NCBI GenBank assembly: GCA_050084515.1
Contig: CM114271.1
Location: 23,560,001 to 23,624,000, forward strand
DNA from: Blasia pusilla
Taxonomy: Eukaryota
DNA: 64,000 bases
Direction of reading: 5' to 3'
The notes beneath the pieces are model-generated. The model was not told where the DNA came from, ran no database searches, and worked only from the letters and a program-made list of their open reading frames with translations. The position numbers and the translations under genes were made by a program. Below are positions 1-46,329 of this stretch, in pieces. Each line of letters begins with the position of its first letter. The first letter of the stretch is position 1.

Positions 1-462
1 GATCGGTGAGATCTAGTAGAGCGCCTTCGTGAGTAGTGGAGGACAGGCTCAGTAGGTTGAGGATGACCTGCTGAGGCCCCGGGAAACCTGAGAGACCAGG
101 TTTCCCCTTCGTTTCGGCTCATTTGGAGCCATATTGAGCAACTTACTATTTTAGATAAGTACCATTTTGAGTATATGATCGACTTTATATTTTTGGTAAG
201 TGGCCCTTGACCTCCTACATCAGGTCAAGAGCCACGGAGGTGACTTGGGAGAATAGGTTACCATGGAGAGAGCTTGGGAGAGGGGAGGGGTATACCTCAA
301 GGAGAGAGAGCTTGAGAGCTCATTCTCTCTTTGTTGAACCTCTTGGCATGAGGCGGCGAAGTTATGATCCCGTGCCTTGTGAGTGTAACCCAAGCCTCTC
401 ATTAGGAGAGTGGGTTTGGTTTAACATGAGAGAGAGTGCACATCTTTGAGATCTATGGTGTG
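1..462 (+). repeat. Left-terminal repeat 'A' (X subtype) of the DNMT-Gypsy family
   Basis: Closely similar to 41928-42375 and 12642-13097, and to the reverse complement of ~13550-14030. Confidence 0.85.
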
Positions 463-2416
463 AGATGGTGTAGAGAGAGATTGGATCTTACTTTACAAAG
501 AGAGAATGAGAGAAAGAGATAATGAGAGAGTGAGAGAGCTTCATGGAGTCGTCAACCAGTGACGGCAGATGACCGCCGATTATGGTGTTTGAGATTTGAT
601 TTCATATTGCTATGTTGTGATCGATAGCCGCTCGACGACGATCGAGTACCGTGTCGTGACGCCCATAGCCGTAACGCGCCGTCGATTGTCGCGACGTGCC
701 GCTTGTGGCCGCTCCGCACGGTCTCGATCGCGGAGTCGAAGCGTCATTGTGGAGCAGAGTGTGGGTTTATTGTTGATTGAGGAGGGTATGTTTTCGAGAG
801 CCACATCCCACCATCGAGGTCCGTGGCGTTTATAGCCGTTCCGTGCCGCCTGGAATGCTGCACCACTCCGCTGGAATCGCACTGTCTATCGAAGAGTTTT
901 GAGTAGCGTCAGTACGGGAGGAGTATGACTTGCTGATTGGAGGAGTTGTCTCCACGACTAAGTTGGGGTTGAGATTTTTAGTTGTTGAGGAGCGACATCG
1001 ACATGTGTTCAGGTTACCCATTCTGGTCCTTTACCCTGCACACGTGAGGGATTATGGGATTTGGGTAGTTTATTTGGGGATATTGGGTTGTGTGGATGTT
1101 GAGAGCATCATTTATGTATGTGGTTTAGGGGACATAGACCTGTGTGGGATGTCCGGAGTTGAGGGTAGGTTGTCGATGAGATGATAGCCTGGTCAATTTG
1201 CCGCACCACGCCGCTTGTTGCCGCACGTTACACGTCTCGGGGAGGGAGAGTGTAGATTGAGTGCCGCATGTTTGGGATGAGTGATTGATTGAGGGATTAC
1301 TCACGAGATTGAGAGTGATCATATGAGAAGGGCATGAGGGCCATCACGGCGTCCTTTCAGGATTTTGAGGGCGAGGTAGTGGACTTGAGAGTAGCTCTAG
1401 AGGGTTTACCCGGAGTGGTGCGAGCATTGGAGGGTCTCCACGTGAGAGACCACCTCGATCTCCTTCTATGTCGTCTTCAGACGAGAGGGAGCGTGTAGAG
1501 GAGTTTGTGAGCATATCGCCACACATTGTGAGTGGTCCTACTAGTTGGGCGTACGAGATGGTCGATCGGGGTAGAGGACCGCGTAGGCGGCGTTGAGTCA
1601 AGTTACAGGCCGCGTGTGGGGATAGGCAGAGAGGTTTGCACGACATGATTTTTGGGCGTGACAGGGATTTGCGAGAGTTGACAATGGAGTGTCAGTGCGC
1701 ATGATGCTAACGGGTTGTCTACATCTGTTGATGGGAGGATCGACTTGATGCACGAGGAGATGGTTGTGCTTCGAAGGTTATCGTGTCACATGGAGGAGTG
1801 AGTGTTGACGGTGCGTAGGTTGGAGGGCGTGATAAAATTACCCATTCGAGTCCCTTTTCCCGCACTTGTCATGTGTGATTGAGAGAGTTGGGTATCGGGT
1901 AGTAAGCTGGTGCTAGGTGGGTGCACTGATGGTGACGAGTGTAGATTCTTTTCATGTGTAGCATGTTAGTGGATATACGGCGGTTGTTGCGTAGGGGTTT
2001 CATGTATAACCCGAGAGGTTAGGTGAGTGTCGCGAGGTTAGGTGAGTCAGTTGGGAGGCTCATGGTGAGCCCGAGTGTTGAGTGTGCGTGAGGCTGGGTG
2101 TGTCATCACGGGATTGACGTTAGCATAGTTGAGCTAGTGAGGAGTGTGGGAGACTCTCGGTGAGTCTGAGTGCTTGAGCGGGTGAGACAGGGTTGTTATC
2201 ACGGCGTTCTTCCAGGGTTCAGAAGAACAGGGTAGTGCGAGCAGTAGTAGTGGAGTGACACGGAGTGGAGTGAGATATCAAGGAGTTACGAGTGAGGAGC
2301 TACCTTGACATCCATCCGTGGTTGGATCGCCATCACTAGACACTGGGTCTATTGACGAGATCGCAGACGGAGGCAGTATCACTTGGCAAGAGATGGACGA
2401 CATGGGCCATTGAGGC

Positions 2417-4363
2417 ATGCGTCGTTTCTTAGGTGCAATGGGCACCATCGACTTAGATGATTTTATCCATGAGTTTGACACGTGGTGCGACTTCCAAGAG
2501 ATACGGACCCCGACACGATTCAACCCTTTCATGGCATGGAAGGGGTTGTTCCAGCACTTGGAGGGTCCTCCAATGGATGATTACATGGAGTTTCAATCAC
2601 TATATTCAGTAGAGATCGATGCCTGGAGGATGTATTGGGCTCCACGGTATGTGTCCACTAGTGGTGGCGAGGCATATGATGGGATTGTGAGAGGAGAGAG
2701 ACCCACACCATCAGCCCCGAGACTAGATGGAGAGGAGGGCAGTGAGACAGGCGATGTGGCAGAGACCTCTGGTGGTAGAGGGCCACCCAACTTCAGCCCC
2801 ACAATGGAGTTCTTCTAACAGTTGGGGAAGAGCTACCAACTGGGCGTACGCACCAACAAGCTAAAGAGTCTACAGGATTTTCAGCCACGATCGGGTGAGA
2901 GTCTGAGATAGGCATTCACACGCATGAGGAGGCTGATCATTGCTACGTATGGAGTGATTGAGGCGCAGTCAGTCCAGAATTGGTACGGGGTTTTGGACAG
3001 AGAACTACAGAGGAGAGTCCGAGATGCGGTGCTGATTCACACAACAAAGCCCACATTGAAGGTGGTCTTGGAGTTGTCTGAGCGTATTGAACTCAACATG
3101 AGTGAGGAGCTGGTAGTGACCGCTAGATTTTCTCGAGAGTCGACGGGTTCACGAGCAACGGTGACCCCACAGGTGCCACAACAACCACCACTACCACGGG
3201 AGCGGGCTGGTGTGCCCAGAGAGCAAGGCGGGTACCGTGAGCCTATGAGGCAACGACCCGTACCTACATGTGTTGCCCAGCAGGGACCGATGTGGTCTTG
3301 TTGGACGTGTGGAGGGGCCCATAGGCAGAGAGACTCCCCACAGTATGGGAGAGGATCACGAGCGGCTCCGATTGCTCAGGAGCCACAGAGGACGGCCCCA
3401 CCACAGCCCCAATGTGACTATTGCCACAGATATGGTCACACTAGGGATAGATGTTTTGACCTTCACCGAGAGGCACGTCCAGAGGTAGACCGAAGGCCTG
3501 GGGGCGGTCGTCCTAGAGGAGGTCGGGGAGTCCTTTCTGAACGTGGAGGTAGAGGACCACCACCAACTAGAGGAGATGGAGCAGGAGCACCAGAGTCGGC
3601 ACTTCTCTCATGTATTGATCAGTTGGAGTAGAGGATTGCTGCCATGACGATGATGCAGCTTAGGGAAGGCACGGAGCTGCGAGCAGCTAGTGTGACTCCG
3701 GCTTCTATCTCTTACCCTGAACCGGTTGAGGATCTCGTCAGTATGGGGTTTATGTGTAGTGCAACCCAGGTTGACTCGGATGACTCGGGATGCTGCGAGA
3801 GGCACCGAGCCATCGAGAGGTGGAGTTGAGATTGACCCACCAGAGGGGACGATGGGCGGCAAGCCAGGGTTCTACAGTCATTCATATTGTTGGAGGCACT
3901 ACACACACCATCGATGGTGCCTCGACGACCAGTGGTGCCTACAGCTCAGACACCTACGTCGATGTCATGAGGAGTTGGAGTGACAACTCCAATGCCGGCT
4001 CGAGTGGAGTCAGTGTCGACCATAGTGTTGGAGGTGGCCACCAGAGTGAGTTAGACTCCACTATTTTCCGCCATAGAGTTGGCAACGTTGGGAGTTGGAC
4101 CAATTGAGGTGTTCGGGCTGGCCACCACGTTGTCTGAGTGTGGAGGGGTGACTGCTTCTTGTTCAGAAGTAGTTGAGGAGGTGGTGGACTTGTCCTCAGA
4201 GCCGGTGCTTGGGACATTTCCCATAGAGTCATGGCATGCGGCGGCGACGAAGTTGGTAGATATGCCAGCTCGACCGGCCATAGAGCGAGCAGTGGTAACA
4301 CATGGAGTAGTGTTACTAGATAACCGAGCGGAGTATTTTGCTTGGTTAGTCCGACGGGGATAG
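2417..4363 (+). pseudogene. gag: gag of copy 1 (capsid-like N-terminus, two zinc knuckles), interrupted by stops
   Basis: ORFs 2417, 2924, 3644 and 4079 are all in one frame. CWTCGGAH..D and CDYCHRYGHTRDRC knuckles. DDFIHEFDTW...FNPFMAWKGLFQHLEG motif shared with the other family copies. Confidence 0.8.
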
Positions 4364-4369
4364 TATACC

Positions 4370-4760
4370 ACCCGCAGTGCGTCCTACTTGATTCGGGAGC
4401 GCAACCCTTGATGTTAGGGAAGGCGGCGTGTTTAGCGTTGGGGATACGAAAGGCCGACATTGAACCTTGTCCCTTCTAGATACAAACCTCGATTGGGGAC
4501 GTGTCACCCACGCAGTATATGACTCAACAGGAGATAGTTGTCAGAGTCCAGCCAGAGCATGCGACGGATAGTGCTTTGGTGCGCACACGTGCGATTACGA
4601 CACCAGCTGAGTCGTACGATGTGTTGGTGGGGACTACAGTGTTATATCCCCTAGGATCCATTCTTGACTTCTGGGAGGAGACCGTTGCTTATCGGCCAGG
4701 GTGGTGGTTAGGAGACGGGCAGATGATTCAATTACCTGTGCAGTTTGCGGGACGAGATGG
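4370..4760 (+). pseudogene. Aspartic protease domain of copy 1
   Basis: VLLDSGAQPLMLG motif at ~4381 and downstream YDVLVG motif. Confidence 0.75.
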
Positions 4761-5099
4761 TCGATCACGAGGCGAGTCTGTGACCACGTTGGCAGCTTTC
4801 ACAGGTAGTGTTAGCTGGCCATGAGAGTTGTTGGAGGGGAACGCACATGCAGAGGATGTCCCAATAGCGGATAGTCCCACGGAGAGACAGCCCATGGCGG
4901 GTGTCTCTCCCCATGTTGGCGAGACCTCTTCACCATTATGGGGTACGACTCGAGAGCTATAGAGGAGTGCCGACGACCTCGTGAGGCAGGCGTGGAGTCA
5001 TGCTTTTATCCCGGAGCAACAAGAGTCATGTGGCGATTGGGCTCTTGGAGTGGAGACGTTGACCCCACTGGATACCACACCCGTTGTGTGGCAGTGCCT

Positions 5100-6070
5100 A
5101 GAGGAGGGTGTTAGGGTGTTAGATCTCTTCGGAGGGATTAGCACCGGATTGGCTGCAGTATTGCAGGTGGGCATACGGGTGCATCAGTACCTTTATGTGG
5201 AGAGAGATGAGACCGTGTGGCAAGTATCATTACGTCATGTGGCGAGATTGGTCCAGAGGTATCCTAAGTTGTTGCCGATATCTGTAGTACGGGGATATCA
5301 GCATACACTACCCGCCGACATCTCTTTGGTGGGGGCGCAGGATCTGGATAGAGTTGGCACCATTCATTTGGTGATTGTTGGATGGCCATGTCAGGGTCAT
5401 TCATCAGCTGGCCGAGGATTTGGATTGCAAGATCCGAGGTCAGGGATGTTTTGGGAGATGCTGCGAGTAGTACGACACTTGCAAGAGAGTCAAACATGTT
5501 CTCCAACGTACATTTTGGAGAACGTGTCGTTGTTGGGAGACACTCGTGCACGTGTGATGACGAGTGTGCATCAGGGGAGGTCTTGGATGGAACCTGCTGT
5601 GTTGTTAGATGCAGTGAGAGTTGGATCACGTGCCCATCATCCATGACTGTGGTGGACGAATCTGATACCATCAGAGGTACTAAGTCGAGCATACGATGGA
5701 GTCCAGAGAGCACTACATCTCAGAGTGGATGCTATTTTGGGCTCAGGGCGTCAATCTCAGGTGGTGATACGGGATGATAGACCACCGCTGGCCATGGCCA
5801 ATAGAGTGGGGGAGTTGAGGGCAGTCTTACCTACGTTGGTGAGCTTCCTAGCATCCCATGCCTTTCGTCAGGGAGGGCTAGGCATGATTTGGGATGAGGT
5901 GACCGGAGCATTGGAGGAGCCTACAGCATATAAGCGCGCCATGGGGTTGGCTATGGGTACTACCGCGGTGCCAGGGATGACTGAGGCATCCCGGAGATAG
6001 GTGTTGGGGGAGGAGACTGACCTCAACTGTCTCACATGGATAGTCAGCCTAGGTATGGCTGAGCAGAGAT
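5100..6070 (+). pseudogene. C5 cytosine DNA methyltransferase domain (DNMT3/DRM-like) embedded in pol, copy 1
   Basis: Motif I VLDLFGGIS, motif II YVE, motif IV GWPCQGHS, GLQDPRS.MFWEMLRV, motif VI YILENV, motif VIII RAH.P(R)LWWTNL, motif IX-like RAMG. Same reading frame as protease, RT and integrase. Confidence 0.9.
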
Positions 6071-6449
6071 GGATGCGAGTGTCATCCATGCCATCACGTC
6101 CACGAGTTGGACCATTGCCTATAGGGTCTGTACAGGCATTGGCTAGGGGAGAGACGAGGAGAGATAGGCATCCATAGACTTCCTGGGACGTCGTTCGAGC
6201 GGAAAGTGCGAAGGCGGCCAGAGTAGCACATGTTCATTTTTTGGATGTGGAGCATGGTGTAGGAGGTCAGAGTGGAGTGGCTCTTGCGGAGGTGGCTAGG
6301 ATTGCTACATAGCAACCAAAGCCGGAGGTTGCATCCTCTCCAAGGGAGGTCACGATGGAGACTTGGGAGCGTGTGATAGGTTCAAGTTGATAGGAGGAGA
6401 GCAACGGCGAGTTCATAGGTTTCTGAGAGGGCATGTTAGTTGTTTTGCC

Positions 6450-7810
6450 TTTAGTATGAGAGACTTGGGTACGTTGAAGGGTCCCGAGATACGGATTGAG
6501 TTGGCTAGTGATACGCCGATCTTTTGTCGACCCTAGAAGTATTCTGATATGGAGCGAGCCTTGATTCAGATCAAGAGTCAGGACTTGTTGGAGGCAGGAC
6601 TTGTTGGAGGCAGGACTTGTGGAGTTATCACATGGGGAGTATGCATCTGCCACAGTCATGCCGGAAAAGAAGGATATGTATGGCAATTGGACGGATAGGG
6701 AGATGTGTGGAGATTGCCGTCCTATCAACCGACAGACGAGGTCAGATCGGTACGCCATGCCTACTTGTGAGGAGATCTTTGATGCGGTAGGGCATGCAAA
6801 GATCTTCAGTACTTTAGATCTCCGTGCTGGCCATCATCAGCTTCCTATCAAGTTAGAGGATAGGGAGAAGACAACATTCTGGGGGATAGATCGGTTTGGT
6901 AGAGATTGCTTGTATCAATGGCGGTTCTTACCATTTGGGTTGAAGAACGCGCCTGCAGAGTTTTAGAGAGTGATGGATAGGATTCTGGCTGGCTTGGAGT
7001 TTGTACGATGTTACATAGATGATATTCTTATCTTCAGTTCCACGGTTGAGGAGCATGAGCGACATCTAGAGGAGGTGTTTCGGCGATTGCAGTTACATGG
7101 ACTGAAGTAACATCCAGGCAAGTGCAGATTCTTTCAGGAGCAGATTGAGTATTTAGGACACACCACATACCCGAGTGGGTTAGGCGTTCAGCGGATAAAG
7201 GTAGAGGCTATTGCGTAGATTCCACGCCCTACATATGTGAGTCGAGTGCGAGCATTTCTTGGACTGGCGAACTTCTATCGACGGTATGTTAAGGATTTTA
7301 GTGTGATCGCAAAGTCTTTGACCTTGTTGACGAGACTTGATCAGGTTTGGTTGTAGGGAGATGATCGTAAGCGAGCATTTTAGGAGCTCAAGGACAGGTT
7401 GATACCCTCACCCATTTTACAGAGACCGGTTAGGGGTCGCCCATTCCAGTTACATACGGATTGGAGCATGTTGGATCTAGGAGCAGTGCTTACTCAGAGG
7501 GATGACGAGGAGACGGAGTTCGTTGTGGCTTACGCGAGCCGATCGAACAACATTGCAGAGGCGAAGTACAGCTCCTACGAGGGAGAGTGCTTGGCTGCAC
7601 TGTGGGCCGTGACACATTTCAGGTGCTATTTATTCGGAAACCCTTTCACACTTATCACTGATCATCAGCCGTTGAGGTGGTTAATGGAGTCCGACAAGCT
7701 TACGGGAAAGCTTGCTAGGTGGGCTCTATTACTACAGGAGTATAAGTTTGAGGTGGTTCAAAGGCCAAGCCGGCTGAACCAAGATGCGGATGGGTTGAGT
7801 CGTAACCCAT
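6450..7810 (+). pseudogene. pol: Reverse transcriptase and RNase H of copy 1
   Basis: MCGDCRPIN, LDLRAGHHQL, PFGLKNAPAEF, YIDDIL, LHTDWS, YSSYEGECLA, ITDHQPL, DADGLSR; several in-frame stops. Confidence 0.93.
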
Positions 7811-8189
7811 GTCCGAGTCAGAGAAACGATATAGGAGCTCGATAGCATGGAGAGAGTGGTGAGGAGATGGTGCCCGATTGGCATGCATCTACCTATCTTT
7901 GTTGGTTGACTATGGCAGGTCAGCCACATGTGATGACTCCAATGGTGGGGTTGGATGATGAATCTTTGGATCTGGAGGTCAATGAGGAGGCAACATGTGG
8001 TCGTGATATCCATGACGACGTGGAGGTTGTGGAGTTCTTGCGCATTGGCGTCATAACAAGCATAGTGAGTGCTAGGGAGCGGGATCGGATCCTATAGATA
8101 GCTAGGAGGTTCAGGTGGGAGGGGACTCACATTTTGCAGGTATGGGGAGATGGTAGGATACAAGTGGTACCTCATCCTTCCCAACGAGC

Positions 8190-9240
8190 ACGTGAAGTGC
8201 GACATGCCCATGAGGAGTTGGGAGTAAAGCGTACTAACAACTTACTCCAGGTTTAGTATTGGTGGCGCGGCATGCATACTAGGGTACAATAGATTGTGGC
8301 CAGATGTATGGTATGTGACAAAGTGCGAGCATCCTTCAATGCTCCCACTCCGTAGTTACATCCTTTTCCGATTATGGGTTTAGGTTATCGGTAGAGTTTA
8401 GACTTTGCGGGACCTTTGCCATTGACGGGGCGTCATCATAGGTACGTGTTGGTGATGGTGGAGCATTTCTCCAAGTGGATAGAGTTGGTGGCACTACCGG
8501 ACAAGGCGAGCAAGGGAACAGCTTATGTGTTTCTAGATTTTGTGCTTAGTCACTTTGGTGCACCGGCGGAGGTGTTGACTAACCAGGGTACCGAGTTCAG
8601 GGGAGAGTTTAAGGCCTTGTGTGATTAGGCGCTGATAGATCACCGCACCACATCCAGAGATCATCCTGAGGTGGATGGGTTGGCGGAGAGAGTGGTACAG
8701 ACGGTGAAGAGAGGATTCCGCAAGTATGGCTTGCAGCGAGGACAGTTGAGGGAGTGGGACCTACAGTTGCCATGGTTGGCTATGGGTTATCGCTTTAGTC
8801 GGTAGGAATCCTTGGCGTCATTTTCACCGTACTTTTTTCTCTTTGGGAGAGAGCCAGATTTACCTACAGCCATTCGACGTGATATGGCGGAGGTGTTAGA
8901 TCTTGATGATCCAGATGTGTGGGTACAAGCATGTTCTCAAAGGGCGGAGGTTTTTCGTAGAGTTATGCCTATGGCCTTTGAGAACTTAGCTATTGCTCAA
9001 CATAGAGATACATTGAGGTACGCGACCGTTCGTGGAGGAGGTTATTGTCCAGGGATTAGGAGGTTTCAACCTGGAGATTACGTGTATTTACAGCATGCGG
9101 CACCCACGATGCTAGATGCCACTGCAGGGCGCACGATCCTACGTATGCGCGAGGTATTACCGACCAGAGTCCTCATGTTGGAGGGACGGGATGGTATGGT
9201 TTGGAAGGATCATGTGCGCAATTGTGCACCATGTCATCTT
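8190..9240 (+). pseudogene. DDE integrase of copy 1
   Basis: H..LG/WWRGM...C..C zinc-binding region, LDFAGPL, VMVEHFSKW, TNQGTEF, HPEVDGLAER, SPYFFLFGREP. Confidence 0.9.
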
Positions 9241-9297
9241 CCGAACGTAGACAGGACATTGGATCCGAGCTTGGCATTGGTACCTACAAGCTTGAGA

Positions 9298-9440
9298 TGT
9301 ATGTTGTGCGGATCAGCGAGGGGTGCAGCCACCATGTTGGTATGTGATGGTTGTTCTCGAGGGTGGCATATGTCATGTCTGACCCCCCCCCTCTTGATGT
9401 GGTTCCCACGGGACGATGGATGTGTCCGAGATGTGTATAG
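9298..9440 (+). pseudogene. PHD finger at the Pol C-terminus (frameshift in poly-C ~9383-9391)
   Basis: CMLC...MLVCDGCSRGWHMSCLTPPL, continuing after a frameshift as DVVPTGRWMCPRCV* = C4HC3 pattern; stop TAG at 9438-9440. Confidence 0.88.
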
Positions 9441-9516
9441 GGTAGTAGGGCATGTGAGAGAGATGTCATATTTTCTATCTGGAGTTGGGGGGATCCAACT
9501 GCCAGCTATGAGGGCG

Positions 9517-9654
9517 GTTGTGTGATCTCCATGTATATGTATGAGTTGATTTTTGTACATGTGTGGATCGACCCGTGTGTGGGAAAGATCGGTGTTGTGT
9601 GGTGTAGATGTGACCAGCGATGTGTGTTGTGTAGCAATATGTATGCGCATGACA
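9517..9654 (+). repeat. Right-terminal repeat B1 (138 bp)
   Basis: Direct repeat of 10137-10274 (8 transitions by eye); ends GCGCATGACA. Confidence 0.92.
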
Positions 9655-9656
9655 AC

Positions 9657-10274
9657 TGTCACATCTGGGTAGCCGATAGGCCGAGATCTATCTTGGATAG
9701 GGCGTAGGAGCCACCGGACTATCTTGAGTGCAACTTTGTCTCACTGTGTCGGATGAGGTTGAGGATAGGTCCATTGTGTCAGGAACGTTGTTTCTGACAA
9801 CTTTCATATTGGGGTCTCTCATAGCTGGGTGACTTGTTGACCAGGTCACCCGCCCCTGGTAACTTGTGTGCGCAGGTTACCAAGGGGAGGGCTATTTTTA
9901 GGGGAAGAGCCTTTTGGCTCTTCCCAACCCTATATAAGAGAGGAAGATGGTTTTCCTAAGCCATCTTTCTCATGTTGAGCCGTTGGAGCACCTCTCTTGT
10001 ATGTGTGTGAGAAAGGACTAGGGTGCTAACGTCCGGATTTCTTGATAGGATAGGATGGACGAGGCTCGATATGCCGATGTAGATTGAGGAGTGGAGTTTT
10101 AGGCTGGGTGTTGCATTTTTACTACTCTTTCTTTTTGTTGTATGATCTCCATGTATATGTATGAGTTGATTTTTGTACATGTGTGGATCAACCCATGTGT
10201 GGGGAAGATCGGTGTTGTGTGGTGTAGATGTGACCAGTGATGTATGTTGTGCAGCGATATGTATGCGCATGACA
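9657..10274 (+). repeat. LTR-like terminal unit A(Y)-B2, 618 bp
   Basis: Begins TGTCACA, ends CATGACA, has CTATATAAG at 9930-9938; last 138 bp repeat 9517-9654. Confidence 0.85.
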
Positions 10275-10329
10275 GAACACTCTCCCATCCTACCCGCTCA
10301 ATTCCTTAAACCATGAACTTATTGTGATG

Positions 10330-11450
10330 CGTGTTTGCCGCTTTTCAGGTTTAAGCTAGGAGAATCACCTTGAGGAATTAATCGACACTCTACGGTATAC
10401 GCGAGCGACTTGGGGAGATTGGTCAAGGTTTGGGGAAGAGGCTTCCTAGGGAGACATTCCGCACTTTGGGAGACTCAACCTGATTAGTGTTTGGTGGCTT
10501 CTCTACTACCTACAGAACACTCAATTGGTTGAGTCTTTGAAACTCAACCTAAGGCTTATGCTTGGAAAACTCAAGGTCAAGAGTAATTTAGGGCGAAGCT
10601 GGGAGAAGTAATTGGTTGGACTTTGCAACGAGAGTTAGACATTGGCATTTCCAACTTTCAATAGAAAGAGGGGTATACAATTAACAAAAATCATCACCTG
10701 TATTGAATAGGAGCATCACTACAAATTGTCATACATTAGAAATAAATAGGCCAACACAAAGTTCACGAAGAAACAGAGTATATGTGAGACAGAGGTGTAC
10801 TCCAAAAAGGGTGGCCCATGGAAGCTTGTAACCATATTCTACATGAGGAGGTGAGTTACCTTAAATTGCAGGCTAATCTACTTGAACAAACTACGCCCCC
10901 CCCCCCCTTCCCTTTCACTGTTGTGTCGTCTTGAATACAACTATAATTGCATTATCTGTATTCAACCGCGACCATGCCCACACCAAGCTGTAACATTTGT
11001 GCTCATCTACATATGTCTATGACCTCCTAGTTATCAATTGATATGTTGTATCATAGTTTTCGCTCATGGGTGCATTGAGGTGTTGCCATGGATAGCCACT
11101 CCAAGTCAATGGTGATGGCTTCGAGATGCTTCTTATCATAGAGCTCAACCTCTTCTCCTTCTTGCCAGTCTATGAAGGGAACCCAACCTTGAAACCTATG
11201 AGTGGAAGACTTGGGTTGAGTCTTGAAGACCCAACTAATCGCACATCTTGTAGGTGATTCAATGAAGCCAACACGCACTGATCGGTTACGAGTCCCCCAA
11301 GTGCATATCATCTCCCTGGGAAGTCTTTTCCCCAAGTTAGCCTCGCCTAATCTTCCCCAATATCTTGCCCAAATCAAAACGCGCGGTTAATTCCTTAAGG
11401 TACACCTTTAATGATTCCTAAGCTTAAACTAAAACATGACCAAAACACAA
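10330..11450. mobile_element. Two old LTR/gag remnants of one family in inverted orientation
   Basis: ~10330-10560 resembles the reverse complement of ~11200-11450; a related piece lies at ~13260-13400; decayed gag-like coding in between. Confidence 0.5.
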
Positions 11451-12622
11451 ACCATGGTTAACCCCTTTTTTCCAAGATTCACGGGGAGTAGGGAGAAAGA
11501 GAATCCCTCCCTATAGGTAATTATAGGATTTTCTACTGGAACCCCACTTTTCCCCATATCTACCATGGCCCTTAGTTGTGGCCCACAACCCAATCATCGT
11601 TTGCATGTTGCAAATCTGCCTTTGACTAGCTAGCCCCCAAGATAACTTGGGGCAGTCTCTATGTAGATTTTTCCCATCTTGACGTCCCAAACTCTTCTTG
11701 GAACCTCAACCCACATTTTTTGTTTCTCATGGTTAACACTTGTCTTGTCTCCCTCCATTTGGTGTCTTATGGTTGTCTCGCCGACCCTCATATTTTGTGA
11801 TTAATTATATGGCGGCTCGCCCCTCTTGACTACTCCCAACTTTCTTGCCTTTGACTCAAAAATTGGCTCTAATATGTTTCATCTATCTAAGTCAAGTAGT
11901 CCTCCATCCTCGTGAGTAACTACGTCTCTTTTCTCCTAAGGTAAGACTCAAGATTAACCCTCATCATGACATCCATGCGCAGATTGGGTTTTTCTTGCCC
12001 TTTGCAAACAGTTAAGCCTATTGCACTCATGTTATTTGGTATCCAAGAAGCGATTCATGCTTGCAATTCAAAGGAAGAGAAAGTTTTGCATAACCTACCA
12101 ATTAAAGTTGAAAACCAAACTAGCTAGTTGCAAGACTATATAAAATGGACAACGGAACGTAATATAAGGCCAACACTACTAAAGAATGGGGCGCCCCTTA
12201 AGACGGACCTTACAAAAAAGGGGGCATACCCACTCGTAGGGACGTGGGAGTCCAAGAGGATGCGCAAAGATACGTGCAATACCCTGAAGCCAGATTCCAA
12301 GTCAAAGGCAAGTAGCATATAACTTGGGAGAAATTGAGATGGATGATCACATGGTTTGGCAAGACAATCATGAGATGCCAAATGGTGGGATTCAATATGA
12401 GAATTAGCATGAAATGCACAAAATCTGGAATGAGCATTAAAGGTGAGTTTGGGGAAGTCATAAGAGGCAGATCTACCCTTAGACTCCCCTAGCTCTTCTT
12501 GGGGTTAGGTAGTCAAATGTGGGTTTGCGAGACGCAAACCACATTTAATTTGGGTTGAGGGACACCGGCCACAACCAAGGGCGAGAATCGTCAATGATCA
12601 ATGATGTAACCTTACTAGCATG

Positions 12623-13251
12623 TGTCACGACTTTTTAGGATAGATCGAAGAGATTTGATACAGCGCCTTCATGAGTAGAGGGGGACAGGCTCAGGAGGTC
12701 GGGAATGACCTATTGAAGTCTTGGGAAACATGAGAGAGCAGGTTTCCCCTTCGTTACGGCTCATTTGGAGCCATATAGATAAACTTACTATTTCGGGTAA
12801 ATTTTTTTATGTTTGGTAGAGTTGACTTTCCACTTTGGGAAGTGGTCCTTGACCCGCTACAATTGGTCAAGAGCCAAGGAGGTCACCCGCGAGCATAGGT
12901 TACCGAGGAGAGAGCTTGGGAGAGGGAAGAGGGTATACCTCAAAGAGAGAGAGCTTGAGAGCTCATTCTCTCTTTGTTTAACCTCTTGGCACAAGGCGGC
13001 GGAGCTATGGTCCCTTGCCTTGTGAGTGTAACCCAAGCCTCTCATTAGGAGAGTGGGGTTGGTTTGACATTGAGAGAGACATGTGAGAGCTATGGTGTTG
13101 TGAGAGAGATTTAACCTTGATTTATTGGAGATATTTTGGTACTTCTTGTCTCGATATTTGGATGTCATGAGTTAGCATGGGATCGTGCGTGCTTGTGTGT
13201 ATATTTGTCGACAGCGATGTATGTTGTGTAGTGATGTGTATGTGCACGACA
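12623..13251 (+). repeat. Solo terminal unit A(X)-B', 629 bp
   Basis: TGTCACGAC...GTGCACGACA; flanks CATG/CACG (4-bp TSD, one mismatch). First ~475 bp match the left end of copies 1 and 2; last ~93 bp match the right end of copy 2. Confidence 0.88.
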
Positions 13252-13411
13252 CACGTTAATTTGCACCTTGGGAGACTCACAACTTATTAGCGTCGTGTGG
13301 CGCCATTGACTCACCAATGGGACGCACGATCAATTGAATTTTCAAGACTCAATCCAAGTGTCTTTCTTGTAGGTCTCAAGATTGAGGTCTCTTCTCAATC
13401 TAACGAGGAGT

Positions 13412-14030
13412 TTTTGTGCCCATACACATCGCTACACAACATATATCACTGTCATCGAATAAACACACAAGATACCATACTACTCATGGCATCTAAAAAT
13501 CAGAAGGATCGAGCACCAAAATATCTACAATAAATCACAAGCACTCAAATGTCTCACAATGTGCACAAAAAATACATCTCTCTCTCTCATGTCAAACCAA
13601 ATCCACTCTCCTAATAAGAGGCTTGGGTTACTTACAAGACAAGGAGGATAATAGCTCCGTCGCCTCATGCCAACATGTTCAACAAAGAGAGAATGAGCTC
13701 TAACGCTCTCTCTCTCCTTGGGTATACCCCCTTCCCTCTCCCAAGCTCTCTCCATGGTAGTCTATGCTTGGAAGTCATCTCCTTTGCTCTTGACATGATG
13801 TAGTAGGTCAAGGACCACTTCCCAAAATCAAAAGGCAACTCTTCTTCTAACGATAACTTACTTGAAATGGTAAGTTTCTATAGCTCCAAATGAGTCGAAA
13901 CAAAGGAAAACCCTGCTCTCTCAGGTTACCCAAGGTCTCAACAAGTCATCCTCAACCTCCTAAAGCTATCCTCCAATATCATCAAAGGCGCTCTACCAAA
14001 ACTCATCAATCCATCCTAAAAGACGTGATA
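13412..14030 (-). repeat. Second solo terminal unit A(X)-B', inverted
   Basis: Reverse-complement homology to 12623-13251 over its length; flanks GAGT/GAGA (4-bp TSD, one mismatch). Confidence 0.82.
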
Positions 14031-14369
14031 GAGAACTATATGTTGAACTCTATAGCGTTGCCATATCATATCATTCCAAGATGCATCGCATCACTAAGGA
14101 GGATTGAGCCATATTATGATTGAGGTGTTGATGATTTATTTATTTTTTCAGAGGAGTAGCAACCACCTTGTAAGTGTATTTAAGCTATCCATTCTTGTCC
14201 CAATTTTGCAATTTTTGAGGATTTTCCCAAGTTGTTGGGTATATGGGATGTTATGACGTAGACAAGTGTATATTGTTATCATACCATTTCACTTATCCAT
14301 GCTACACATGTACCACATTGTATGAGGGTATATACTAGCATAGACTTAGTTTCCAATTGTGTCGGGATT

Positions 14370-30769: not shown

Positions 30770-31772
30770 TGTCGCGCCCCTACTCTAGTTGAACGTCAAT
30801 ATTTAGTGTTGCGGAAGCGTACGTTCAGTAGGACACGATCTCATTGCCGATCTGCACCCAAATACGCACTCTCGTTAGTCGAGTGTGGGCCAACCAGCGT
30901 TCCCAACCCACCGAGTTCTCAACTCGGCGTCTCATCAAGCTCAAACCTTCCTTAATTCCTAGTTTCCAAAACATGGCAAGTCCTTCAAGACTTGGAACAG
31001 ACTTCCTGATTAGTCCAGGAACCTAAAAAGGCACTTACACACTTAGCGATCCCAACTGTTCAACAGACCTTGTGCGAGTTCCAAACCGAGACCCAAGTAA
31101 TTGAGTTGCGGGGTGAAATCCAAGAGGGATGTCTAACATCGCCTCCGTAGACTTGGTTCAGGTTTTCCAACCCAACCCCAAACTCTCGATCCGTTCCATG
31201 CCCTTGAGTCGCCGCATGGCGCCCCAAAGTGGGGTTCAAGTTCCAAGCACTCTGGGAGACCTTCCCCCTTACTAGTACTTATGGGGTTCTCCAATAACCC
31301 CCCCTTGGAAAAGGAGGGTCGGGCCCTTCATTGTGGCCCTCAACCGACTCTACATAGAGTCATTTCCGGGTTGTTTCTCAGCCGCTGCTTATGCGTTTGC
31401 AAAGATCTTTAGTGTGTTTGAACCGGCTTTCCATAAGCCTTCCAACTCACCCTTGTTTAATCCAAACGCATCTTTTCGCTAAAAGTGATGGTTATAAATA
31501 CAGTCGGAAACTCTCAAACGCTAGTGGCGTTCCAAATCCGGATTCCTTCCTTTGGCAATCCACTTTCTAGACTCGATTCCTTTCAAGTCTTATTCCTCGT
31601 TTGGTCCAGGTTTCTCGGTCGAGACCACAACATCTGAAACGCGAAGCCTCGCTTGCGTCTCGTCTCTTGTCTCTTCTTCAAGACTACTCCAACGTGCAAA
31701 CCATCTTAGCGTGAGCCCGCTAATGTTCCGATGTTCCGCTTTGGCACTCGTTTGATCATGAGGGTCGTGAAA
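30770..31772 (-). repeat. 3' LTR of the chromovirus (~1003 bp)
   Basis: Matches 36224-37145. Confidence 0.92.
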
Positions 31773-32461
31773 CTCACGCCTCTTTAGAGATTGATGACCT
31801 CATCAACGCAAACCTTTGTTATGTCAAGTCTCCTGGGTAGCCTACCCCTTGACATTGAATTGCTTTCTGGTGGCTAACCTGCAATTCTTCTTAGTCTAGA
31901 GTTGTCGCTTTGCATCACTTAGAATTATTAGCCTCTCCTCTTTGATAAGCCTGGACTTGTTCCAAAGAACTAACCTATCAAATAAGCTAACTAAGTGTGC
32001 AACCTTAGACTCTTCTGGCTCATTCCTGTAAACATCACACATGTTTACCTGGTCTACAAATCGTACTACTATTGGGTCGCTCTCGTATTTGTCTTAGGCG
32101 CGTCACTAAGTTTACTTATGTAGCCACAAGTAAGATCACCCCAAGACCCAAGACAGATTCATCTGCCCCGCCGACGCTAGGGCGAGCCCGAGTGTAATCC
32201 AACACAAGGTCCTATTCTAGGTGCTTATCCACATACGAGCTCTCATCTCAAATACTCCTTGTGTGTCCTCTTGAATTACATCCTAAGCCCATGATGAACG
32301 ACTCATAGCCATGCACTACCACATACAAATTGCAATCAACTTTGGCATCGAATCTCCAAATCCATACACTCCTTTATTGCAACACTAGCATATTCTAGTT
32401 ACAACGGCCTTCGGCCCAAGATTCCAATGGGTACAAGTCATGTCTCTAGCTTCTCCTCGTA

Positions 32462-35400
32462 CTAACGTATCTGCTTTGCTTGCGTTTGCTCGAAGTCTCG
32501 CAACAACTCTTGCACGTGTTCCAAATCCGACTCCGCAATCCAAGTCGCCTCCTTCACATGGTAGCCCTTCCATTTAACCAAGTATTCATACTTGTTGGCC
32601 CGACGCCTCGAACGTAAGATGGTCTCCACCTCAAACTCCGGCTCTTCATTTATGATCACCAGGTACGGTCTCACCACCTGTCTCCGCTCAAAACGTCCAT
32701 TATCTTGAAGATATTTCTTCAACAATGACACATGAAAGGTCGGGTTAATCTTGAACTCGATCGGCAGCCCCAAAGTATACACATCCTCAAACGGGTTTGC
32801 CACAATTACATACGGTCCAGCATACTTGGCAGACAGCTTCGTAGACAACTCTTTCGGAAGAGTGAGATTCTTCACACTCAACCACACTTGCTCTCCAACT
32901 TGGAATCGTCCTTGGCGCCGACTCTTGTTAGCATGCTTAACGTACCTCATTTCAGCCTTTGCAAGACTTCGCCTTGCTCGCTCTTCCCGTTCTCGCATTT
33001 CTACCAACAAACCTTATGCCGTCGCTTGTCGTGTTCATGCCAATATAGTACCCTTCGAAAGGGCTAGGTTAAGAGGCCCTTTTGGCTCTCGTCCAATTGC
33101 CAGGAGAAACGGAGATTCTCCAGTTGCAAAATGCTTGGTCGAGTTGTAGTTGTACTCCGCCATGCTCAGCCACTTGACCCAATCTCCTTGATAAGCACTG
33201 ACATAATTCCTTAAGTACTGATTCACGATAGAGTTAACCTTTTCAGTCTGTCCATCCGTCGGTGGGTGGAAAGCCGTACTGAAACTCAGCTTGGTCTTAA
33301 ACCTCCTGAACAAGTGCTTGCAGAAAGCACCGGTAAACTTTGGATCCCGATCTGAAACAATGCTCCTCGGCAATCCATGAGCACGCCACCAGCTATCGAG
33401 AAAGAATAACAACGTCGTATAAGCCATTACGGAATCCACCGTCGGCATGAATCTCGCCAACTTGCTAAATCGATCAACAATCACAAGTATAGCGTTGTAT
33501 CCCTCTGATTCCGGAAGACTCGAGATGAAATTCATACTCACACTTTGCAAGGGTCCTTCTGGGATCGGCAAGGGATGCAGAAAGCCTTGTTTCTTATCAT
33601 AAGAAACTCTATTTGCTTGGCAGGTCACACAGGTCTTCATATATTGAGCAACATCCTCTTTCATGTTGGGCCAAAAGAATCGCTTTGATGTGAATGACCA
33701 GCGTCAGAGATTTCTCTCCTTTATGTCCTGCCAAGGGTCCGTCGTGACACTCCGCTAACACTTTGGTTCGCATCCTGCCTTGCCCTACATAGATCCTACT
33801 CTGTTTGAACCTTATTAAACCGTGCCTCAAACTTATGTTGGCCACCTTCTCACCCTGCTTCAACTTCCTCAGGTACTCCCCTGCGTGAGCATCCTTCACG
33901 AATCCTTCTTTCCAGGTCTGTTTCTTTAGGGAACATTGCTCTCAAGACCTGTGTCGTCGATGGCATGTGTTCCTCCTTGCAACTCAATGCATCTGGAATC
34001 ACATTATCTTTACCTGGCTTGTGAATCAACTCAACATCCATCAACGCCAAGGTATCATGCCATTGCAGTTGTTTCGGTGTCACTCGATCTTGGGTCTCAA
34101 AATACTTGAGTGATATATTATCGGTGAATACTCGAGTCATGTGGAGCCCTAGATAATGCCGCCACTTCCTCAAGCAATGTACCACCGGGAACAACTCTTT
34201 CTCGTGAGTGGGCCATCTCCTTTCAGTATCGCTAAGCTTCTTGCTCTCGTATGCTACAGGTCTCCCTTCTTGCACCAACATTCGTGCAACCGCGAAATCA
34301 CTAGCATCGGTATGCACTTCGAACGGTTTGTCAAACTCCCGCAGCTTCAATACTGGTTCCTGCGATAGAATCTGCTTCACTCGGCTGAATGCCTCATTAA
34401 CTTCCTGGGTCCAAGTCGTGTTGGCAAACTTTGATGTCCAATCCGTGAGAGGTCTCATAATTCCCAAAAAGTTTTTCACATAAGTGCGATAGAACTGCAC
34501 CGCACCTATGAACCTCCTCATCCCATTTACATTGGATGGGGGTTCCCACTCGACAATCGCTTTCACCTTCTCCATGTCTAGACTGACGCCATCCGCACTG
34601 ACCACGTGACCCAAGAATTTGATCTTGCTCAAACCAAATTCGCTCTTCTCTACATTCGCATACAGCTGATTTGCCCTTAGCTTAGACAAGACCGCTTTCA
34701 CATGTCGAACGTGCTCCTCTAGTGACTTCGAATAGATAAGTATGTCATCAATATACATGATAACATACTCATCCACTTCCTTGTGAAAGATAGAGTTCAT
34801 CAATGTGGTGAACGTCGGAGGCGCGTTACATAGACCGAAAGGCATCACTACAAACTCAAAGGACCCATATCTTGTCCTACACGCAGTCTTCTCCACATCT
34901 GCCTCGGCAATCCGGATCTGGTAATATCCTGACTTCAATTCAATCCTACTGAAATATCTTGCGCCTGCTAGCCTATCGAAGAGATCATCTATCCTTGGAA
35001 GAGGATAATTGTTCCGAACCGTCACTTTATTCAGCGCACGGTAATCAACACATAGCCTCATCTTTCCATCCTTTTTCTTCACAAAAGGAACTGGTGCTCC
35101 ATTAGGTGACTTGCTAGTCCTAATGTAACCCTTTCCCAAGAGCTCACTTAACTGCCTTTTCAACTCAAGAAGTTCCTCATGATTCAACCTATATGGTGCT
35201 TTTGCATGCGATTGGGAACCAGGTATGGTCTCTATCTTATGATTGACGGCTCTATGTGGCGGCAATTCAATAGGAAGCTCATTTGTCAAGACATCCTCAA
35301 ACTCCTTGACCACTTCCTGGAGTGGTTCTGGGATTCCCCTTGAATCCGTGTCCTGATCTCTCCTTATTCTGCTTGTAGCCTCCTCCACTTGTCTCATTAA

Positions 35401-36010
35401 GCAAAGAAATCCATCCTCCAACTCGGTCATGCTCCTCTTTGTAATCGAGTTCACTAACTCTTTTTTCGCCGGAACCTCACGGTGCAACCGCACCTGTAAC
35501 CATTTTGCCTTTTAGCAAGACGCTCAACCTCAAGGGTCTACATCTTAACTCCACCTCATACGCGTCTAGGAATATATTCCCCAAGACTCCGTCAATGCCA
35601 TCCATTTTGCACAGAGTGAAATTCTCCTTCAACTCGAATACCCCGCATCCTACAGTCAAACCCAAGACCAATTCAGAAGTCCGATGAGACTTGCCTCCTG
35701 CAAATCCTACTCGAATGGGCTCATCTGCCTTAGATGTAGACAACCCCAGTTCCTTCACGATTCTTGGGATTAGGAAGGAGTGCGAAGCACCTGTATCCAC
35801 GAGCAACAACACATCGCGATCAACAATCTTGGATCTTAGGTACACCAAATTGTGCGTCCTCTTGGAGACCTGAAGGGACGTCTCGAGATCACCCGCCAAC
35901 AGATGCTTAGCAGCAAACGCAATCATACTCCCATTACTAACCTTCGGTTACGAACACACTTTCGCCAGGTGCCCCGGTTCGCCACAGTTGTAGCATATGA
36001 CCTTGCCGTT
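32462..36010 (-). pseudogene. pol: Chromovirus gag knuckle-PR-RT-RH-IN-chromodomain with frameshifts
   Basis: CYNCGEPGHLAKVC, LLVDTGASHSF, YIDDILIYS, TDASDFAV, IVSDRDPKF, DGQTE, GPY, FEVETIL...YLVKWKGY...TW chromodomain. Confidence 0.95.
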
Positions 36011-36223
36011 CCCTGACTTCGAGTGTTGTCCTCCTCTCGACTTTGCATGAAGTTCCACTCATTTTGCTACCGGGGCAGACGACTCTCCTGGATTGTGCAG
36101 GCCCCCACTCCACACTCTTTTGAACGTCTCCTTATTTTTTTACTTCTTCGAAAAACCTTTTGGCTCACAAGGTTTCTAGGTTTGGGCCTCATCGCCCCCA
36201 ATCCGCTCCGCTAGCTTCAGAAG

Positions 36224-37145
36224 CCGATCTGCACCCAAATACGCACTCTCGTTAGTCGAGTGTGGGCCAACCAGCGTTCCCAACCCACCGAGTTCTCAAC
36301 TCGGCGTCTCATCAAGCTCAAACCTTCCTTAATTCCTAGTTTCCAAAACATGGCAAGTCCTTCAAGACTTGGAACAGACTTCCTGATTAGTCCAGGAACC
36401 TAAAAAGGCACTTACACACTTAGCGATCCCAACTGTTCAACAGACCTTGTGCGAGTTCCAAACCGAGACCCAAGTAATTGAGTTGCGGGGTGAAATCCAA
36501 GAGGGATGTCTAACATCGCCTCCGTAGACTTGGTTCAGGTTTTCCAACCCAACCCCAAACTCTCGATCCGTTCCATGCCCTTGAGTCGCCGCATGGCGCC
36601 CCAAAGTGGGGTTCAAGTTCCAAGCACTGGGAGACCTTCCCCTTACTAGTACTTATGGGGTTCTCCAACACCCCCCCTTGGAAAAGGAGGGTCGGGCCCT
36701 TCATTGTGGCCCTCAACCGACTCTACATAGAGTCATTTCCGGGTTGTTTCTCAGCCGCTGCTTATGCGTTTGCAAAGATCTTTAGTGTGTTTGAACCGGC
36801 TTTCCATAAGCCTTCCAACTCACCCTTGTTTAATCCAAACGCATCTTTTCGCTAAAAGTGATGGTTATAAATACAGTCGGAAACTCTCAAACGCTAGTGG
36901 CGTTCCAAATCCGGATTCCTTCCTTTGGCAATCCACTTTCTAGACTCGATTCCTTTCAAGTCTTGTTCCGCGTTTGGTCCAGGTTTCTCGATCGCGACCA
37001 CAATATCTGGAACGCGAAGCCTCAATTGCGTCTCGTCTCTTGTCTCTTCTTCGAGACTACTCCAACGCGCAAACCATCTTAGCTTGAGCTTGATAATGTT
37101 CTGATGTTCCGCTTTGGCACTTGTTTGGTCATGAGGGTCACGACA
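36224..37145 (-). repeat. 5' LTR of the chromovirus, inner end deleted together with PBS and most of gag
   Basis: Matches 30846-31772 and abuts the gag C-terminus directly. Confidence 0.9.
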
Positions 37146-40395: not shown

Positions 40396-40441
40396 CACAT
40401 GTGAGTTTTGGGCAGCGAAGCGTGGTGGAGAAGTGAGCGGG
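39889..40441 (+). repeat. 280-bp tandem duplication
   Basis: 39889-40168 aligns with 40169-40441. Confidence 0.9.
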
Positions 40442-43400: not shown

Positions 43401-43884
43401 GTTTAGGGGACATAGACCTGTGTGGGATGTCCGGAGTTGAGGGTAGGTTGTCGATGAGATGATAGCCTGGTCGATTTGCCGCATCACGCCGCGTGTTGCC
43501 GCACGTTACACGTCTCGGAGAGAGAGACTGTAGATCGAGTGCCGCATGTTTGGGATGAGTGATTGAGGGATTACTCATGAGGTTCAGAGCGATCGGGTGA
43601 GAGGGGCACGAGGGTCATCACGGAGTCCGTTCGGGACTTTGAGAGGCGAGGTGGTGAACCCGAGAGTAGCTCTAGAGGTTTTACGCGGAGTGGCGCAAGG
43701 TTCTGAGGGTCTCCACGTGAGGGACCACCTCGATGTCCTTCTGTGTCATCGTCAGACGAGGGGGAGGGTGTAGAGGAGTTTGTGAGCACATCGCCACACA
43801 TTGTGAGTGGTCCTACCAGTTGGGCGTACGAGATGGACGGACGGGGGGTAGAGGACGCGTAGGTTTTAGTGTGTGAGGCACGAT

Positions 43885-45985: not shown

Positions 45986-46329
45986 ATCGAGCAACGGCCG
46001 GGAGAGATGGCGACCTTAGCAAAGATTTAGCAAAGCGGTGCCATCACTTGGCCTAGTGATTTGATTGAGGGACATGTCCATGCAGAGGATACTCCCGTTC
46101 CTGACATTTCTATGGAGAGGAGTGTTATGGTAGCTGCATCATTCCGTGGAGGAGAGGTGCCGTTGTGGGGCTCGGACCGAGGAGCTTCAACGATTGGCGA
46201 GATGAGCACGTCATCACGCGTGGAGCGAGGCGTTTGCACCGAGCGTGGCAGTCGAGGAACTGAGGTAGCAAGGAGTGCTACGATGACACCCTTGGATACC
46301 ACACCCATTGTGTGGTGTACCCCGGAGGA

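Follow-up and report, generated by a model that had tools for sequence, protein, structure and literature searches.

The closest described counterpart of the element reported here is KnitGypsy-Dnmt3 of the charophyte alga Klebsormidium nitens (de Mendoza et al. 2018, PMC5890265), which the available parts of that paper describe as an intronless, multi-copy element whose long terminal repeat (LTR)-Gypsy-type coding set carries a DNMT3-type domain in the polyprotein frame, with its motifs unrearranged and its element domains at Ka/Ks < 0.2. The legend to Fig. 4c of the paper sets its repeats out as in a DIRS element, with Gypsy domains, and the legend to Fig. 1e spells the DIRS arrangement A-coding region-B-A-B. 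SymbioDIRS-Dnmt3 and SymbioLINE-Dnmt of Symbiodinium, in the same available text, also have a cytosine methyltransferase in a retrotransposon coding frame, and their DIRS elements come in two domain orders. EpiLTRs, from Cymbomonas and Euglena, are LTR elements with a cytosine methyltransferase and a chromatin reader, and the accessible text of their preprint sets them apart from "streptophytes (Gypsy-DNMT3)" (bioRxiv 10.64898/2026.05.21.726589); a 2025 paper, in the part available, places retrotransposon-embedded DNMT3s "in streptophytes and dinoflagellates". Here we analyzed a 64,000-nucleotide stretch of contig CM114271.1 (the window), finding a C5 cytosine methyltransferase domain in the coding frame of a Ty3/gypsy-type element (copy 1) and again in a second, diverged copy (copy 2). 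Judged from sequence, we give a probability of about 0.8 to the reading that this is the DNMT3-type domain of a long-dead Ty3/gypsy-type element in a liverwort-like plant, a statement about identity and architecture.

The window element shares with KnitGypsy-Dnmt3 the Gypsy coding set (reverse transcriptase (RT), RNase H and DDE integrase in order and in one frame), the in-frame DNMT3-type domain with unrearranged motifs, the lack of introns, multiple copies, a streptophyte host, DIRS-like repeats and purifying selection. The hosts differ, a charophyte alga there and a liverwort-like land plant here, and the catalytic residues typical of KnitGypsy-Dnmt3 are conserved in relatives of the window copies only. 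The kind of element is thus one already published, as the Gypsy-DNMT3 of Klebsormidium (PMC5890265, as far as its available text goes). The Symbiodinium elements, as described there, are tyrosine recombinase DIRS and LINE elements of other hosts, whereas the element here has a DDE integrase (rve); their coexisting domain orders resemble the types A and B described below. In EpiLTRs, according to the accessible preprint text, the methyltransferase groups with DNMT4 and lies at the 3' end of pol, and the elements additionally carry an adenine methyltransferase and a chromodomain.

In copy 1 the methyltransferase domain occupies 5100-6070 in frame +1, flanked by the protease and RT. The first-pass annotation, made from the letters of the window, had suggested a PF00145 check; run on the frame +1 translation of 4501-9600 with X put at stops, Pfam matched the family at nt 5317-5550 (E 3.9e-8; score 33.5 bits, cut-off 22). 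The motifs (Table 1) follow the ordinary order I, IV, VI, VIII, IX, X, unlike the permuted DRM order, and arithmetic on coordinates places all eight open reading frame (ORF) starts named in that annotation in frame 1. Its "complete motif set" stands as far as the motifs being present in order, but neither window copy is intact, and the motif VIII string that it quoted, RAH.PRLWWTNL, turned out to be a mixture of both copies: copy 1 actually reads RAHHP*LWWTNL, with both arginines gone and one of them replaced by a stop. Translation of copy 2 recovered the same domain at the same place, as the annotation had said. Copy 2 has LDLFGG, ILENV, RAHRPRLWWTNL, ERERAMGF and LGQAMD, shows GSLCQG instead of GWPCQG at motif IV, and is without integrase and PHD. 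Key catalytic residues are not conserved in the window, given the broken motif VIII and two domain stops of copy 1 and the GSLCQG, six stops and frameshift of copy 2. Both copies are dead family members that make no working enzyme, so neither acts now.

To classify the domain, we compared it with known structures. A single-sequence search of the PDB with the domain alone found DNMT3A best (1.9e-6), followed by HaeIII (7e-3) and DRM (0.02). A profile built from 27 family members matched DNMT3A at 1.8e-23, DNMT3C at 2.2e-21 and DNMT3B at 2.8e-20, and lower down tobacco DRM (4e-14), DRM2 (3e-10), HhaI (7e-9) and DNMT2 (4.7e-5), leaving DRM chains 9-13 orders of magnitude below DNMT3A; none of the 56 profile matches at E up to 0.01 was a DNMT1- or chromomethylase-named chain. 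An AlphaFold2 model of the copy 1 domain had a mean pLDDT of 86.5, and its top Foldseek matches were all DNMT3A/B/C chains (E about 1e-13, TM by target 0.70-0.75). The label "DNMT3-like" given at first reading is borne out by DNMT3A/B/C being closest in both sequence profile and predicted fold, and on these two grounds we class the domain as a DNMT3-like C5 methyltransferase that forms part of a Ty3/gypsy coding frame. Among 10 proteins of the same architecture as the window element (type A, below), no variation is seen in GWPCQGH (bar one residue), in ENV or in two residues of motif I, the F and one G, and in motif VIII, AHRxRxWTNL, one arginine is invariant and the other nearly so.

Besides being its best profile and fold matches, host DNMT3A/3B/3C share its motif order, including AHRxRxW[T/G]NL. 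They differ in that identity is ~20% and that here the domain, with no PWWP or ADD, is the tail of a Gag-protease product, with a PHD reader on the integrase. We rejected a stand-alone host DNMT3 gene, since a protease lies upstream and RT downstream and Pfam found no PWWP or ADD reader domain in copy 1 or in L023, a near-intact metagenome element. DRM membership was rejected as well, the motif order being ordinary and not circularly permuted. Look-alikes in the Protein Atlas were generic PF00145 clusters only.

The domain is widely shared. A word-indexed search with the domain as query matched 31 long proteins (935-2975 residues), comprising 14 from Marchantia polymorpha annotated as hypothetical proteins (identity as high as 62%), one of Sphagnum fallax and 16 from metagenome-type sources. 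One of the Marchantia proteins, P0001 (Mp_4g09160, 1278 aa), is an open Gag-CCHC-protease-DNMT frame that ends shortly past the domain. HMMER over 1.84 billion representatives gave 2251 matches at E<=1e-3; at the stricter E<=1e-30, 148 clusters remained. Mapping the window domains onto 181 proteins revealed two architectures: type A, as in the window, is protease-DNMT-RT-RNase H-integrase-PHD, and type B is RT-RNase H-DNMT-integrase-PHD. Among 30 proteins looked up by name, type A was found in Marchantia, four Closterium strains and Mesostigma viride, and type B in the green alga Scenedesmus sp. PABB004; no Klebsormidium protein stood among these 30 or the 31 long matches. In a tree of 182 DNMT domains, one branch (support 97) parts the two types, 49 versus 91 rows with 42 unlabelled, and the RT-RNase H tree, of 66 segments and with an unrelated Gypsy of the window as root, again has one branch (support 94) between them, 13 versus 52 rows; both trees were made with FastTree only. 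Because the DNMT tree mirrors the RT tree, the domain has travelled with the element and has changed position once.

A scan of metagenome contigs with an alignment of the family found 53 loci with the domain, most as decayed as the window copies. In L023, by contrast, both frames are open: ORF1 (1369 aa) holds the protease and PF00145 (1.8e-13) and ends in TAG, and immediately after it, with no change of frame, comes ORF2 (1047 aa), which encodes RT, RNase H, integrase and PHD. The protease-homologous region of L023 matches Asp_protease_2 at E 2e-4, under the Pfam cut-off, and rve scores 51.9 bits there compared with 32.5 in decayed copy 1, where the cut-off is 32.6. The same domain order recurs in the Marchantia, Sphagnum, Closterium and Mesostigma proteins and in near-intact metagenome elements. 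The annotation's view of a family trait, not a one-off capture, is upheld by copy 2, the 14 Marchantia proteins, the 53 loci, L023 and the congruent trees.

One metagenome locus, L046, carries a type-B element at 2-4729, a 1576-aa open frame with the methyltransferase domain between RNase H and integrase; the domain goes undetected by Pfam at E 1e-3 and shows 40% identity to the query by tblastn. A second open frame of 2153 aa in L046 (5883-12341) has no Pfam family.

Copy 1 is laid out A...B-A-B (A1, B1, A2, B2), A starting TGTCACG and B terminating GACA. A1 is truncated by the window start, the true repeat start lying ~20 nt upstream of base 1, and 9517-9654 is duplicated locally at 10137-10274. 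Between B1 and A2 stands a ~2.3-kb segment that was probably inserted later, because B1 adjoins A2 directly in another locus, L012, which reads contiguously A 1676-2017, coding, B 10238-10350, A 10350-10691, B 10693-10805. Reads from RNA are absent over 10341-12690 and contig depth there is almost nil. B-A-B also occurs in L034 and L044, B-A in L001, where the locus edge ends it, and A alone upstream of gag in 12 loci. The A-coding-B-A-B layout of the window element matches that published for KnitGypsy-Dnmt3. The likeness to DIRS elements is one of repeat layout only: we rejected DIRS/Ngaro/PAT membership given the presence of Integrase_H2C2 and rve, and Pfam reported no tyrosine recombinase (phage-integrase) family in copy 1 or L023. 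No LTRs were found in the L023, L035 and L006 contigs, probably since these contigs end at repeats. A plant initiator-tRNA motif, allowed <=2 mismatches, gave three primer-binding-site matches against 5.7 expected by chance, none of them near the repeats.

We next estimated selection by the Nei-Gojobori ratio of nonsynonymous to synonymous divergence (dN/dS). Between the two near-intact elements L023 and L035 it is 0.12 for the DNMT domain (331 codons), 0.15 for protease, 0.03 for RT, RNase H and integrase and 0.05 for PHD; between copies 1 and 2 it is 0.19 for DNMT (298 codons, dS 1.58), 0.08 for RT and 0.17 for RNase H, all of these being rough values since dS is saturated (1.3-1.6 and above). 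The dN/dS check on the domain that the annotation had proposed thus gave 0.12 and 0.19, not values near 1, in line with the Ka/Ks < 0.2 of the Klebsormidium elements, and most of its divergence therefore seems to have arisen while it was under constraint.

Family transcripts are present in three RNA-seq runs of 10-12 million records each, under one species label and from one study: 864-974 reads per run align to 1-14100 at >=92% likeness, across gag, DNMT and pol, and in most of them the first mate lies on the minus strand, the orientation of sense RNA in most stranded libraries. Separately, 14-18 reads per run match only ~35 nt around PCQ (5366-5400) and then diverge while still reading as motif IV, so that more distant DNMT-bearing copies are transcribed too. 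The observed/expected CpG ratio is 0.69 and 0.77 in the two copies and 0.63-0.66 in the surrounding DNA; CpG depletion as a mark of self-methylation was rejected, the copies' ratios matching the background. Strand composition was likewise rejected as a signal, since positive GC skew is common to all family members and to the unrelated Gypsy's own coding strand.

The C-terminal PHD finger of L023 finds its best PDB matches in CHD4, PHF12, PHF21A, KDM5A/B, ATXR5, KAT6A, DPF3, UHRF1 and AIRE. Most of those PHD domains read histone H3 tails unmodified at K4 or R2. A PHD finger of this sort on the integrase might steer insertion to chromatin with unmodified H3 tails, away from active promoters. With a PHD finger and not a chromodomain at the integrase C-terminus, chromovirus membership was rejected. 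Gypsy elements of Chlamydomonas are known to carry PHD fingers as accessory domains (PMC9940879); Gypsy-7a_cRei and others resemble the family in being green-lineage Gypsy elements whose accessory PHD is thought to guide insertion, and differ in that the available text mentions no methyltransferase and its legend puts the PHD before the integrase, where here it follows the integrase at the C-terminus.

At the border between the DNMT domain and RT, both window copies, L006, L023 and L035 share a stop at the corresponding position. With the six bases that follow, it reads TAG CAA CCA in copy 1, copy 2 and L006, TAG CAG TTA in L023 and TAG CAA TCA in L035, and all five borders fit UAG_CAR_YYA, the tobamovirus-type leaky-stop motif (Skuzeski 1991, as cited in the available text of PMC3542737). 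Another 33 loci were compared, and 23 of them have at this place a stop with CAACC[C/T] directly after it (17 TAG, 6 TAA). ORF2 of L023 has no Met before residue 117, and its residues 1-127 have a dN/dS of 0.09 against L035; such constraint on a start lacking Met fits translation straight through the stop. It is likely, on this comparative evidence, that ORF2 is reached by stop-codon readthrough. The annotation had called the methyltransferase part of Pol: it is in frame with RT, but the conserved UAG between them makes it the predicted C-terminal tail of the upstream Gag-protease-DNMT product and not part of the RT-integrase product.

On this reading, translation of a live element would usually terminate at the UAG and give Gag-protease-DNMT, and a minority of ribosomes would continue through UAG-CAR-YYA, adding RT-RNase H-integrase-PHD. 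That would yield about as much methyltransferase as Gag, to be released by the element's own protease. As in the tobamovirus case, the downstream frame is open and conserved; here, however, the stop would part Gag-protease-DNMT from RT-integrase, whereas there it parts two parts of a viral replicase. Once freed, the enzyme would carry out de novo methylation of the DNA newly made from the element or of the site where it lands, an idea put forward for the Klebsormidium and Symbiodinium elements; the first-pass annotation, too, had suggested that the enzyme could be packaged with Pol and act on new cDNA or the insertion site. Argued by analogy, this self-methylation step is speculative, with a chance that we place a little below even.

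Several observations weigh against the account given so far. Copy 1 is heavily decayed, with 33 premature stops (8 in gag, 6 in protease-DNMT, 19 from RT to PHD) and two frameshifts, one near 4327 that moves gag from frame 2 to frame 1 and one near 9397-9401 that shifts the end of PHD into frame 3. Kinship with the KnitGypsy-Dnmt3 type, as far as its published description is available, rests on shared defining features and not on alignment. Four loci (L009, L010, L027 and L029) with 3' sequence long enough show B without a following A. The saturation of dS blunts the selection estimates. Only 3-9 RNA reads per run are >=99% alike to the window, most being 90-95%, and all come from the one study; the transcripts therefore stem from other family copies and not from this locus. 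The PHD would be a reader of unmodified H3 tails on the strength of the names of its best PDB matches. As for the stop, the other 10 of the 33 loci are out of frame there, the 23 end the hexamer in C or T, not A (a departure from the tobamovirus type as well), just 3 of 38 metagenome loci have the complete TAGCARYYA string in frame, and no conserved RNA structure follows the stop in eight sequences (-2.3 kcal/mol, 0 covarying pairs).

The last of these points, together with the CAACCC that most related loci have in place of a full CARYYA, would suit ORF2 being expressed in some other way, for instance from an internal or spliced transcript, by non-AUG initiation or with a suppressor tRNA. We regard this as improbable, because ORF2 is invariably in the frame of ORF1 and starts immediately behind the stop, selection acts on its first 127 residues, a stretch in which L023 lacks any Met before residue 117, and the six post-stop bases vary across lineages yet retain CAR-YY. 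Readthrough bears in turn on where the enzyme might act. A place upstream of a leaky stop predicts more DNMT than RT or integrase, which would fit a real DNA methyltransferase acting mainly in trans, on host chromatin or rival elements; it could, for example, serve in counter-defence or mimic gene-body CG methylation. The copies' CpG ratio, no lower than that of their surroundings and so without a clear extra mark of self-methylation, points the same way, but it comes from dead copies that the host would methylate anyway and does not tell cis from trans. Action mainly in trans is in our estimate unlikely, though less so than another route to ORF2.

Whether the domain of live relatives is in practice a DNA methyltransferase is a further matter, since motif X reads GQAMD where GN is usual, and a structural or binding module, or an RNA methyltransferase working on the element's RNA, might look the same. 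Against this stand the catalytic motifs, invariant or nearly so across the 10 type-A proteins, the best matches to DNMT3A/B/C (1.8e-23) and not DNMT2 (4.7e-5), and the report, in the abstract of PMC5890265, that retrotransposon DNMTs methylate CG de novo; we hold it distinctly improbable that the domain is something other than a DNA enzyme. The decay of both window copies and the other nested repeats nearby (an inverted lone A-B unit and the 2.3-kb insert) might instead evoke a one-off event, namely a fragment of a host DNMT3 or an unrelated carrier lodged inside an ordinary Gypsy, or an assembly chimera. That idea is already contradicted and its chance is close to nil: the domain sits at the same place in two copies differing 25-33% in DNA, recurs in the 14 Marchantia proteins, the 53 metagenome loci and intact L023, and is in frame and under purifying selection, with DNMT and RT trees that agree.

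Table 1. Coordinates of the two family copies and associated repeats in the window.
Feature	Position	Strand	Remarks
Repeat A1 (5' repeat, copy 1)	1-537	+	81% identity to 12643-13124, 91% to 41928-42451
gag, copy 1, frame 2	2393-4327	+	translation matches Marchantia protein P0001; 8 stops
Two CCHC knuckles in copy 1 gag	3299-3322, 3413-3439	+	
Aspartic protease, copy 1, frame 1	4327-4820	+	LLDSGAQ at 4384-4404
Motif I LDLFGGISTG	LDLFGG 5119-5136	+	copy 1 translation
Motif IV GWPCQGHS	GWPCQG 5380-5397	+	copy 1 translation
Motif VI ILENV	5512-5526	+	copy 1 translation
Motif VIII RAHHP*LWWTNL, broken	5629-5664	+	copy 1 translation
Motif IX-like KRAMGL	5932	+	copy 1 translation
Motif X-like VLGEETD	6001	+	copy 1 translation
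Stops within copy 1 DNMT domain	5644, 5998	+	translation
In-frame stop TAG CAA CCA, end of ORF1 (Gag-protease-DNMT)	6310-6318	+	copy 1
ORF2, copy 1	6313-9434	+	Pfam; 19 stops up to 9396
RT, copy 1	6712-7164	+	RVT_1 E 8.9e-28
RNase H, copy 1	7360-7743	+	RT_RNaseH E 4.7e-33
Integrase zinc, copy 1	8176-8331	+	Integrase_H2C2 E 4.1e-8
Integrase core, copy 1	8398-8667	+	rve E 1.1e-7
PHD finger, copy 1	9298-9434	+	PHD E 3.1e-6
Short repeat B1	9561-9654	+	directly after pol, terminates ...GCATGACA; like 13197-13251 and 49320-49363
Insert between B1 and A2, ~2.3 kb	10275-12622	.	no likeness to family
Repeat A2	12623-13157	+	3' end of copy 1
Repeat B2	13158-13251	+	directly after A2
Lone A-B unit, inverted	13416-14028	-	77% identity to 12625-13247 of other strand
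Copy 2, diverged and truncated	41909-49363	+	~41 kb from copy 1
Copy 2 A repeat	41909-42451	+	
Copy 2 gag	about 43922-45422	+	
Copy 2 protease LLDSGA	45615	+	
Copy 2 DNMT domain	46034-47271	+	52-57% protein identity to copy 1; frameshift at 46963
Copy 2 TAG CAA CCA	47577	+	
Copy 2 RT-RNase H	47580-49271	+	
Copy 2 B-like piece	49270-49363	+	

The 5' repeat and leader of the two copies (1-1587 versus 41928-43863) are 90-91% identical, whereas their coding parts are 67-75% identical; this contrast, with A1 and A2 of copy 1 only 81% alike, suggests a mosaic formed by recombination or conversion between subfamilies. The inverted lone A-B unit and copy 1 are arranged tail to tail across a gap of 165 nt, and the unit may be the remnant of a second insertion near the same spot; no pol match was found beside it. 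Elsewhere in the window is a young, unrelated Gypsy on the minus strand (30846-37139) with LTRs at 30846-31766 and 36223-37139 that are 97.6% identical, including 300-nt stretches at 100%; it has open frames of 553, 222 and 183 aa and, by reading of the translation of 32462-35947 (minus), a chromodomain-like C-terminus. An Argonaute-1-like gene occupies about 57000-59100 on the minus strand; its first exon, at 58310-59086, encodes an N-terminus rich in glycine and proline, and 57383-57778 holds another exon-like frame. The first exon best matches liverwort AGO1, of Marchantia paleacea (47%, whole exon), Riccia fluitans (45%), Riccia sorocarpa and Calypogeia fissa, and on these matches the host is taken to be a liverwort-like land plant. 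A 280-nt unit is present at 39882-40441 as two tandem copies, 88-89% identical, and just past the truncated end of copy 2 a 138-aa open frame (49925-50341, plus) looks by eye like a fragment of a non-LTR (LINE-type) RT.

With the kind of element already in print, what appears new is that it ranges across streptophytes and into land plants, that a leaky-stop layout joins the enzyme to Gag and protease, that the integrase bears a PHD finger, and that a green-algal element shows the sister architecture. The first-pass annotation had known of no described land-plant family of this sort, and our literature search agrees: it found no printed description of Gypsy-DNMT3 in Marchantia or any land plant, with most subscription journals and supplements outside its reach, so that a supplementary list could exist, for instance in PMC5890265 or PMC12344493. 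Tentatively, and at clearly less than even odds, we propose an ancient Gypsy lineage with a DNMT3-type writer, produced at Gag-like levels upstream of a leaky stop, and an integrase-borne PHD reader of unmodified H3 tails, both carried through streptophytes from Mesostigma to liverworts and mosses, beside a sister lineage (with one named chlorophyte member) that has the writer between RNase H and integrase; the lineage would still be transcribed in liverworts and may add its own de novo cytosine methylation.

Cytosine methylation is the host's main weapon against transposons, which makes it paradoxical for a transposon to encode a methyltransferase itself. The published cases come from one dinoflagellate and one charophyte alga, neither of them easy to manipulate. 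The window copies are fossils that matter only as pointers to the family, whose liverwort and moss elements, with annotated but unnamed Marchantia polymorpha copies and family transcripts, would move the question to plants with good genetics and methylomes. The leaky-stop layout, the integrase PHD and the sister Scenedesmus architecture offer handles for experiments. If true, de novo methylation by the element itself in a tractable model plant would let the purpose of a transposon-borne methyltransferase be tested.

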